Below are positions 27,001-30,000 of a stretch of 64,000 nucleotides of DNA, one piece after another. The position numbers were made by a program. The stretch lies in assembly GCF_000027125.1 (NCBI RefSeq), contig NC_017626.1; one strand, written 5' to 3'. The DNA is from Escherichia coli 042 (GTDB lineage Bacteria > Pseudomonadota > Gammaproteobacteria > Enterobacterales > Enterobacteriaceae). Each line of letters opens with the position of its first letter. The first letter of the stretch is position 1.

Positions 27001-30000
27001 TGGCTGGGCGCAGTCGGTGGTGACCTTCCACGGTGGCGCTTCTCAACATCTTGATGGCGTGGCGTTTATCTTCCGTCTGCACCTGGTGCTGGGGATGACG
27101 TTATTCCTGCTGTTCCCGTTCTCGCGTCTGGTGCACATCTGGAGCGTACCGGTGGAGTATCTGACACGTAAGTATCAGCTGGTGCGCGCTCGTCACTAAG
27201 CGAATTTTAGTTTGCATAGACCCCGCTTCGGCGGGGTTTTTTATGGGCACGGTACGGGGTGAGTTGTCGGATGCGCTTCGCTTATCCGACCTACAGGGGA
27301 GGATATTGTAGGTCCGGTAAACGCGGTGCCATTGGGTAGAATTAGCTCGGAGTAACAGGTTTTGAGTATTTACAGGAAGTGATGGTGGTGGGGGAAGGAT
27401 TACTCAGCGCTGCGCGCTTCACCCTTCGGGTCGTTGCCTGCGGCAACGCTTTCTCGCTGGCGCTCGAGTCGCACCTTGGTCGAAGCTTCTCATCCTTCCC
27501 CGCATGGGCAGAATATTTAATTGCGGATTCGTTTGAGAGTTCACGGACTTTTGAAAAGTGATGGTGGTGGGGGAAGGATTACTCAGCGCTGCGCGCTTCG
27601 CCCTTCGGGTCGTTGCCTGCGGCAACGCTCTCTCGCTGGCGCTCGAGTCGAACCTTGGTCGAAGCTTCTCATCCTTCCCCGCATGGGCAGAATATTTAAT
27701 CGCGGATTCGTTTGAGAGTTCACGGACTTTTGAAAGTGATGGTGGTGGGGGAAGGATTCGAACCTTCGAAGTCGATGACGGCAGATTTACAGTCTGCTCC
27801 CTTTGGCCGCTCGGGAACCCCACCAGGGGTAATTCAAATTTTGAGGTAATGCTTGAGATGGTGGTGGGGGAAGGATTCGAACCTTCGAAGTCGATGACGG
27901 CAGATTTACAGTCTGCTCCCTTTGGCCGCTCGGGAACCCCACCACGGGGTAATGCTTTTTACTGGCCTGCTCCCTTATCGGGAAGCGGGGCGCATCATAT
28001 CAAATGACGCGCCGCTGTAAAGTGTTACGTTGAGAAAAATGAACTGGTTGCGTAATTTTCACCCGTAACGGATTAAAGGTAACCAGTTATTTTTGCTGGC
28101 GATTAAAGAATAATCGTCCGATTACCGTAAACAAAGACGCGCTGCGCCAGTACTTTGTAGAGTGCGCGACTTAAGACGTTTTTCTCGACGTCACGACCTG
28201 CGCGCATCATATCTTCAGCTGTGTAGGTATGATCGACATGAATAACGTCCTGCATGATGATTGGACCTTCGTCCAGATTGTCATTCACATAGTGAGCGGT
28301 TGCGCCAATAATCTTCACGCCACGTTCATAGGCCTGGTGATAAGGACGTGCGCCGATAAACGCTGGCAGGAATGAATGGTGAATATTGATGATCTTATTC
28401 GGGAAGCGTGCCACAAATTCTGGCGTTAATACCCGCATATACTTCGCCAGCACCACGTAGTCAGGCTGATAAGCATCAATGGCATCCGCCATCTTTTGAT
28501 CGTGCTCGTTGCGGCTTAATCCTTCATGACTTACCAGCTCAAACGGAATATCAAAACGCTCAACCAGAGAACGTAAAGTATCGTGGTTACCAATAACTGC
28601 CGCGATTTCGACATCCAGGCCGCCGTAATTGGCTTTCATCAACAAATCGCCAAGGCAATGCGCCTCTTTAGTGACCAGAATCACTATCCGGCGACGACCG
28701 GCAGGATTCAGCTCACGTACGGAGCCTTCTGGCAATGCGCTGTCGAGATCCGCCAGCAGGGTGGAATCATTAAAAATTCCTTCCAGTTCCGTGCGCATAA
28801 AAAAGCGCCCTGTACGGTGATCAACAAATTCATTGTTCTGCACGATATTTAACTCGTGCTTGTAGCAAATATTGGTAATACGTGCGATCAGACCTTTTTG
28901 GTCCGGACAAATAGTACGCAGAACTTTACGTTGGAGTGAATGCATTGCTGGAAAAACCTTGTTGAGAGTGTTTGCTAAACCGTACCGTCAACCATTATTG
29001 GCCGCAGCACTTTTTAAATTTTTTACCTGAACCACAAGGGCAGGGATCGTTGCGGCCAAACTGCGGACGTGTACCGTCAATATAGTACCATTGACCGTTT
29101 TCTTTCAAAAATCGCGAACGTTCAATTATTGCACCTGTTTTGCCACCTTCGGTAAATCGAGCAACAAAACTGACAAATCCGATATTGTCGCCGTCCTGTC
29201 AACAATGTTCAAATACGGTCAATCCCAACCATTCAGTATGCGCAAATCCGGCAATCAATTCGGCACGTAACGCCGCTGCTCCACAAGATGGATGCCAGGT
29301 CTTTATTAAATAATCTGCGTCTTGCATCACAAAAGCGCAGTAACGCGAACGCATGAGATGTTCTGGATCAGGTGCAACCTTTTCACCAGACACATAAGGG
29401 TGGCAACATAGGCTATACTCGACAGCACTACCACAGGGACAAAGCTGAGACACAAATAATCTCCCTAGAAACAATAACGGCGTATTAACCGCCTGAGTAG
29501 CACTATGTTAACCGAGCAGTAGCGATGTTGCTACGATTGCATTCCAGGGGAATCTTGCGGGAATAATGAGAAAGATAAAAATAGGGCTGGCGCTGGGATC
29601 TGGCGCGGCGAGAGGTTGGTCGCATATTGGCGTTATTAATGCGCTAAAAAAAGTGGGTATTGAAATTGATATCGTTGCAGGATGTTCAATTGGTTCGCTG
29701 GTGGGCGCTGCCTATGCATGCGATCGATTATCTGCGCTGGAAGATTGGGTAACCTCTTTCAGTTATTGGGATGTTTTACGCCTGATGGATCTCTCCTGGC
29801 AGCGCGGTGGATTACTGCGCGGCGAGCGTGTCTTCAATCAATATCGCGAAATAATGCCGGAAACAGAGATCGAAAATTGTTCCCGTCGCTTCGCGGCTGT
29901 TGCCACCAATTTAAGTACTGGGCGCGAATTATGGTTTACTGAAGGCGATCTCCATCTTGCTATTCGTGCATCATGCAGTATTCCAGGACTAATGGCACCC

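Follow-up and report, generated by a model that had tools for sequence, protein, structure and literature searches.

In Escherichia coli K-12, the two tRNA-Tyr genes tyrT and tyrV are expressed from a single promoter, that of tyrT (PMC2887954). A stable RNA of ~171 nt, RtT, is processed from the K-12 tyrT transcript (Bosl & Kersten 1991, as cited in PMC3318445); PMC3318445 also assigns rttR to a single repeat unit of the tyrT operon and describes it as multi-copy or lost in some strains. At this position the K-12 MG1655 annotation lists narI, ychS, rttR, tpr, tyrV, tyrT and purU (identifiers for tyrT-tyrV-rttR/tpr: b1231, b1230, b4425 and b1229). We analysed a 64,000-nucleotide stretch of E. 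coli 042 (contig NC_017626.1; hereafter the window), which carries two tRNA genes and a tandem repeat array on its minus strand. This feature is almost certainly the tyrT-tyrV tRNA operon of E. coli with its RtT trailer, present as a common allele of a highly polymorphic locus. The locus is already known in kind, and an allele with one repeat less than K-12 is an ordinary and common natural variant.

ARAGORN detected exactly two tRNA genes in the window, both tRNA-Tyr(GTA) and both on the minus strand. The promoter-proximal gene (anticodon GUA; 27859-27943; Rfam tRNA model, 53.4 bits) is the tyrT equivalent and is identical to K-12 tyrT. The second gene (27740-27824; also tRNA-Tyr(GUA) and also found with Rfam), the tyrV equivalent, is identical to the first over all 85 nt. 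Between them lies a 34-nt spacer, TCTCAAGCATTACCTCAAAATTTGAATTACCCCT (27825-27858, minus strand), delimited by alignment to K-12 and by a map of the last 19 nt of the tRNA.

The second tRNA gene is followed by the repeat array. Tandem Repeats Finder (TRF) placed an array of 2.1 copies at 27377-27758 (period 179 nt, match 97%, score 727), and a repeat search gave two copies, 27377-27555 and 27556-27734, with 98% identity. No second tandem array of comparable size or score was found by TRF in the 64-kb window, so the array is far beyond chance. The 19-mer AATCCTTCCCCCACCACCA, which is the 3' end of the tRNA including CCA, starts at four minus-strand positions (27877, 27758, 27580 and 27401). These positions therefore set the unit boundaries at 27758-27581 and 27580-27402, with a partial copy at 27401-27377. 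Unit 1 (178 nt, 27581-27758, minus strand) shares its first 19 nt with the end of tyrV; unit 2 (179 nt, 27402-27580, minus strand) differs from it at 5 positions in the unit distance matrix. The array is closed by the partial third repeat (27377-27401, minus strand), the 0.14 unit, whose 25 nt consist of the 19-mer and TCACTT; it was recovered by TRF, the alignment and the 19-mer map alike. The initial annotation had described two identical minus-strand tRNA-Tyr genes and two units of about 178 bp beginning with the last 19 nt of the tRNA, at 27379-27943. The genes and units were borne out by these analyses and the coordinates are right to within 2 nt, although the partial third copy and the difference from K-12 had been omitted.

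Both units were full-length matches (model positions 1-130) to the Rfam RtT family (RF00391; gathering threshold 45 bits), unit 1 with 137.5 bits at 27562-27693 and unit 2, in which one pair of the consensus structure is non-canonical, with 131.2 bits at 27383-27514. Both lie directly 3' of tRNA-Tyr, and each is closed by a further copy of the tRNA-derived 19-mer. An RNA derived from either unit could close a stem, GGGGAAGGAU / AUCCUUCCCC, and would have a tRNA-like ...CCACCA 3' end. Carrying the coordinates over from the K-12 annotation, the equivalent of the 171-nt rttR RNA is 27732-27562, ending in ...CCACCA.

The surroundings point to the same locus. Along the minus strand, the region 26800-28600 contains the end of purU, the tyrT promoter, a tRNA gene, the 34-nt spacer, a tRNA gene, the tandem array, a REP-like palindrome (REP, repetitive extragenic palindromic), a GC-rich hairpin and the 3' end of the convergent narI. 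The flanking genes purU and narI are syntenic with K-12, as seen from the annotation of K-12 and of the matching region of strain 118UI. The 901 bases around the locus (27200-28100) are 100% identical to 118UI, for which the Prokaryotic Genome Annotation Pipeline lists narI, two RtT sRNAs, two tRNA-Tyr genes, purU and ychJ. A promoter scan placed the tyrT promoter at 27994-28021 on the minus strand with 10/12 matches: a -35 element TTTACA (28021-28016), a 16-nt spacer and a TG-extended -10 element TATGAT (27999-27994), followed by the GC-rich discriminator GCGCCCCGC. Between the purU stop and tyrT, the K-12 and window sequences differ at one site only, 28062, and the promoter is identical. This site has G in the window and A in K-12. 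It precedes the inferred start of tyrT transcription by ~76 nt and falls within the upstream activating region, where FIS sites have been described for K-12. In a population survey of 5,426 complete E. coli genomes, 5,425 matched the 901-base region at least partly. We found no evidence contradicting the identification as tyrT-tyrV and RtT. The locus had initially been assigned to the known rtT/tpr arrangement, and in kind this is upheld by the synteny, the promoter, the RtT matches and a tpr open reading frame (ORF) identical to that of K-12; the arrangement is nevertheless not that of the K-12 reference.

To compare the two arrangements, the sequences were aligned globally between the stop codons of purU and narI, and the 19-mer map was used alongside. 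The expected identity with K-12 did not hold, since the window has 2.14 downstream units against 3.14 in K-12, and a 34-nt spacer against one of 209 bp between tyrT and tyrV. The K-12 spacer consists of a 175-nt diverged RtT-like unit, with 46-49 differences from the canonical units, and 34 nt identical to those that alone make up the spacer in the window. Unit 2 of the window reaches 179 nt through one extra T relative to K-12, and there are a few substitutions, such as the one at 28062. Both indels are in register, and their boundaries coincide exactly with the 19-mer. The differences are best explained as gains or losses of whole units, through unequal homologous recombination or replication slippage between direct repeats (the 19-mer, the unit or the tRNA gene). 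Unit 2 of the window is nearest to the terminal unit of the three-unit allele of strain WCHEC4533 (2 differences), and unit 1 is nearest to units 1 and 2 of that allele (4 differences each). These distances match the loss or gain of one internal unit, and the window thus looks like the WCHEC4533 allele with one internal unit removed, or the latter like the window with one added.

As 178-bp tandem repeats and duplicated tRNA genes are typical sites of short-read collapse, the two units and the 34-nt spacer might also be an assembly artefact, with repeats collapsed from a K-12-like locus. We consider this extremely improbable. Many complete genomes share the architecture (118UI at 100% over the 901 bases, and 7 of 60 sampled records), as do Citrobacter, Enterobacter and Pseudocitrobacter species, and the two units of the window, with their five differences, are no consensus of the K-12 units.

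The whole-unit differences agree with how the locus varies across the surveyed E. coli genomes. With a 159-nt query for the canonical unit, from which the 19-mer was excluded, we counted 10,069 copies in 4,725 genomes (median 2, maximum 9), and none in the other 701 (~13%). In a rank-spaced sample of 40 records, there was one copy in 12, two in 10, three in 16 and four in 2. That the number of repeats may vary between strains, as the initial annotation had remarked, is therefore correct (2.14 units here against 3.14 in K-12, and 0-9 canonical units per E. coli genome). Plasmid-borne matches made up 18 of the 10,069. One genome holds the maximum of 9 canonical units.

The K-12-type inter-tRNA unit, counted through its unique 5' part, was present in 1,921 of the 5,426 genomes (35%). 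A junction query (tRNA body, 19-mer and spacer) was fully covered in 4,818 genomes, which leaves ~2,900 (4,818 - 1,921; 53%) with the direct tRNA-spacer-tRNA form. This agrees with a rank-spaced sample of 40 matches to that query, of which 21 were single-piece (a direct pair, as in the window), 14 were two-piece (K-12 type) and 5 were tRNA only. About 11% of genomes have a single tRNA gene. Two other counts were set aside. At least 80% coverage of the 69-nt junction query was dropped as a measure of direct pairs, as half-matches were merged in K-12-type loci, and a 54-nt spacer query (3,628 genomes) was not used for frequencies, as its total is too low for two-gene loci, probably for want of a 28-nt seed in variant 33-nt spacers.

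The exact architecture of the window, scored as a full-length single-piece match from narI to purU, was found in 7 of the 60 rank-spaced records. Only this class was used from the 60-record table, as repeats split the other matches and make them ambiguous, and six representative loci were read directly instead. These gave a direct pair with two units (118UI), a direct pair with three (WCHEC4533), the K-12-type spacer with two units (NT1N31) and the K-12-type spacer with three (K-12). The remaining two, EC958 and Rb-23, have one or two tRNA genes and no RtT, with a 7-gene cluster between narI and the tRNA. The cluster encodes a FabH-like ketoacyl synthase (KAS) III, an NAD-dependent epimerase, a metallo-beta-lactamase (MBL)-fold hydrolase, an F390-synthetase-related protein, a PAP2 phosphatase, a sterol desaturase and a fatty-acid desaturase. 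It lies at 1403573-1410597 of NZ_HG941718.1 in the sequence type 131 (ST131) strain EC958, and its junction falls directly after the tRNA CCA and TCACT, which is the repeat boundary. K-12 is thus unrepresentative of E. coli here, its inter-tRNA unit being a minority state (~35%) and three downstream units occurring in only about one third of genomes.

We then considered RtT in other Enterobacterales, with one genome scanned per species. An RtT-specific 20-mer, TAATCCTTCCCCCACCACCA, matched 105 stretches in many genera; at its distinguishing position the tRNA itself has GAATCC. Rfam RtT matches of 68-134 bits were obtained beside tRNA-Tyr in all 12 loci tested (E. albertii, Enterobacter, Citrobacter, Klebsiella, Yersinia, Serratia, Photorhabdus, Dickeya, Budvicia, Erwinia, Rahnella and Sodalis), and the layout, 3' of tRNA-Tyr and ending in the 19-mer of the tRNA 3' end, was seen at more than 100 loci outside E. 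coli. Two arrangements, tRNA-~34 nt-tRNA-RtT(n) and tRNA-RtT-~34 nt-tRNA-RtT(n), both recur in several genera. In Dickeya undicola (4184-4821), Budvicia aquatica (10215-10858) and a Sodalis sp. (5775-6409), RtT directly follows tRNA-Tyr within a four-tRNA cluster. The layout of these clusters may resemble that of thrU-tyrU-glyT-thrT, tRNA-Tyr being the one gene identified in them. The RtT unit goes with tRNA-Tyr, whatever the operon.

Across 59 aligned units, the 5' third varied freely and the 3' two-thirds were conserved. In the central hairpin (columns 136-139/161-164), 7-16 sequences per pair carry double substitutions that preserve pairing, and in a smaller hairpin (pairs 116/129 and 119/126) 5-6 sequences do. 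The outer stem is invariant and hence uninformative, and the invariance of the last 20 nt, being imposed by the search pattern, carries no weight. Since the minimum free energy folding of a single unit gave z = -2.0, which is weak alone, the argument for structure rests on this covariation.

These observations bear on whether the units have any function of their own. They could be selfishly propagating or neutral repeats, by-products of a duplication process that the tRNA 3' end seeded, and serve at most as spacer DNA for Rho-dependent termination. The range of 0 to 9 copies, the 701 genomes without units and the 7-gene cluster that replaces them in ST131 and other B2-type strains would all be expected of such DNA, and RttR overexpression gave no phenotype (PMC4606813). 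Yet at least one unit has been kept after tRNA-Tyr in Yersinia, Serratia, Dickeya, Budvicia and Sodalis, with Rfam scores in the 68-134-bit range, the 3' two-thirds are strongly conserved while the 5' third is free to vary, and the changes in the helices are compensatory. The retention of the unit, the 3' conservation and the compensatory changes are marks of purifying selection on RNA, and we regard units without function as unlikely.

A second possibility is that the functional product is Tpr, a basic 'protamine-like' peptide of 29 amino acids, and that the repeat is conserved for encoding it. The ORF analysis of unit 1 indeed gave an intact tpr ORF of 29 codons and a stop (27583-27672, minus strand), whose protein is identical to K-12 Tpr (b1229). 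All four E. coli alleles examined have the 29-codon ORF intact in their first unit, and it is intact only in E. coli first units. The tpr-like ORF of unit 2 (27493-27419), however, has 2 substitutions and a premature TGA that leaves 24 amino acids, and in K-12 units 2 and 3 the ORF stops after 5 and 9 codons. Among 130 Enterobacterales units, the ORF from the conserved AUG was mostly 5 amino acids long (MRSFD*), out of frame, or without its start codon. The substitutions in the central hairpin, moreover, are compensatory for RNA pairing. A Tpr-based function for the repeat is thus very unlikely. Judged from these alignments, it is as a structured RNA after tRNA-Tyr that RtT is conserved across Enterobacterales, and tpr lacks conservation as a coding sequence. 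What calls for explanation is therefore the role of the RNA and not that of the peptide.

We also evaluated the plus strand, where K-12 annotates ychS (91 amino acids) inside the repeats, for a YchS-like protein gene antisense to them. The window has two plus-strand ORFs here, 27379-27561 (60 amino acids) and 27558-28007 (149 amino acids). The former, the counterpart of ychS, is cut to 60 amino acids because unit 2 is one base longer, and the latter runs antisense through both tRNA genes. The lengths of these ORFs merely track repeat number and G+C content. Neither behaves like a gene, and we see next to no chance that a plus-strand gene is the real feature.

A sigma-70 tyrT promoter precedes the two tRNA genes, and the second gene runs straight into the 2.14 units. 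By analogy with K-12, one precursor would span the whole region (PMC2887954), and tRNA-processing nucleases would free from it both tRNAs together with a stable RtT RNA of 171 nt, corresponding to unit 1 (27732-27562; PMC3318445). Transcription would end by Rho-dependent termination inside the repeats, as in the K-12 work. A scan for consensus terminators gave nothing convincing inside the repeats, which is compatible with the published Rho-dependent termination and is no test of it. A further secondary mention of the published K-12 work is found in bioRxiv 10.1101/2024.07.17.603846.

As to what the RNA may do, two points weigh against a function. An overexpression screen of RttR gave no biofilm, motility or fimbriae phenotype (PMC4606813), and canonical units are lacking from the ~13% of E. 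coli genomes counted above. These two points make the function of RtT doubtful. A role in modulating the stringent response has been proposed for it, but is unproven, and we know of no base-pairing target or sponge activity for RtT. The number and placement of units could also be a selected, tunable polymorphism instead of neutral repeat instability, which we consider very unlikely. If it were so, units that mimic the tRNA 3' end could titrate factors that process tRNA or bind CCA ends, or could set the site of Rho termination, and alleles like that of the window would give a tRNA-Tyr output or a starvation response unlike that of K-12. Beyond a correct annotation the significance is small, the locus being a textbook tRNA operon with ordinary allelic variation.

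Downstream of the array, a REP-type palindrome, GTAGGTCGGATAAGCGAAGCGCATCCGACAAC (27263-27294), was read from the sequence between the repeats and the narI terminator, and by alignment it is conserved in K-12. A RepRanger table in PMC12306157 enters rttR as REP-associated. A GC-rich hairpin, CCCCGC-TTCG-GCGGGG, followed by a T-run (27221-27243, plus strand), was also read from the sequence, having been missed by the consensus terminator scan; it is likely the intrinsic terminator of the convergent narGHJI operon (narI ends at 27199). Apart from the tyrT promoter, the 1.1-kb promoter scan gave one other promoter-like site (27332-27305, minus strand, 9/12 matches), downstream of the array and outside the operon. 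Weak Rfam matches at ~27100-27244 (istR, Trp leader and RsmY, overlapping the narI terminator hairpin) and at 28057-28105 (tmRNA) were far below thresholds and were discarded as chance.

Elsewhere in the window, we observed two antitoxin RNAs of the rdlD family at 10650-10715 and 11186-11251 (both plus strand, 536 nt apart; Rfam 87.6 and 83.6 bits), which form an ldr/rdl type I toxin-antitoxin tandem array. K-12 has three ldr/rdl copies at this locus, which would make it a second tandem array of variable copy number in the window. A lambdoid prophage is integrated beside ompW at ~52800-64000. Its genes include an integrase, an excisionase, an exonuclease, dicB, a Rha regulator, ydfB/C, YdaS/YdaT and replication protein P, and its RNAs include the C4 antisense RNA (57810-57897), isrK (57922-57998) and DicF (58238-58289). 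A 12-kb stretch of the prophage was matched at a coverage of at least 80% by only 134 of the 5,426 genomes. The one other TRF match in the window, a 21-nt repeat with 3.7 copies, 74% match and a score of 76 (55103-55178), falls within this region.

Compared with the described systems, the locus shares with K-12 its position, the tRNA genes, the promoter, the 34 nt before tyrV, the 178-nt units bounded by the 19-mer, the tpr ORF of unit 1, the REP element and the narI terminator. With respect to RF00391, full-length units directly 3' of tRNA-Tyr show no material difference from the family. Among the named alleles, that of 118UI is identical in architecture; WCHEC4533 has the same direct tRNA pair but three units, NT1N31 combines the K-12-type inter-tRNA unit with two units, and ST131 EC958 has one tRNA gene and no RtT, the 7-gene cluster taking the place of the array. 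A further comparison is offered by 3'ETS-leuZ, a stable RNA excised from the trailer at the 3' end of a tRNA operon transcript. RtT is likewise an RNA derived from a tRNA trailer, and 3'ETS leuZ is tabulated beside rttR in PMC12306157. Unlike 3'ETS-leuZ, RtT is structured, occurs as tandem repeats and copies the 3' end of its tRNA.

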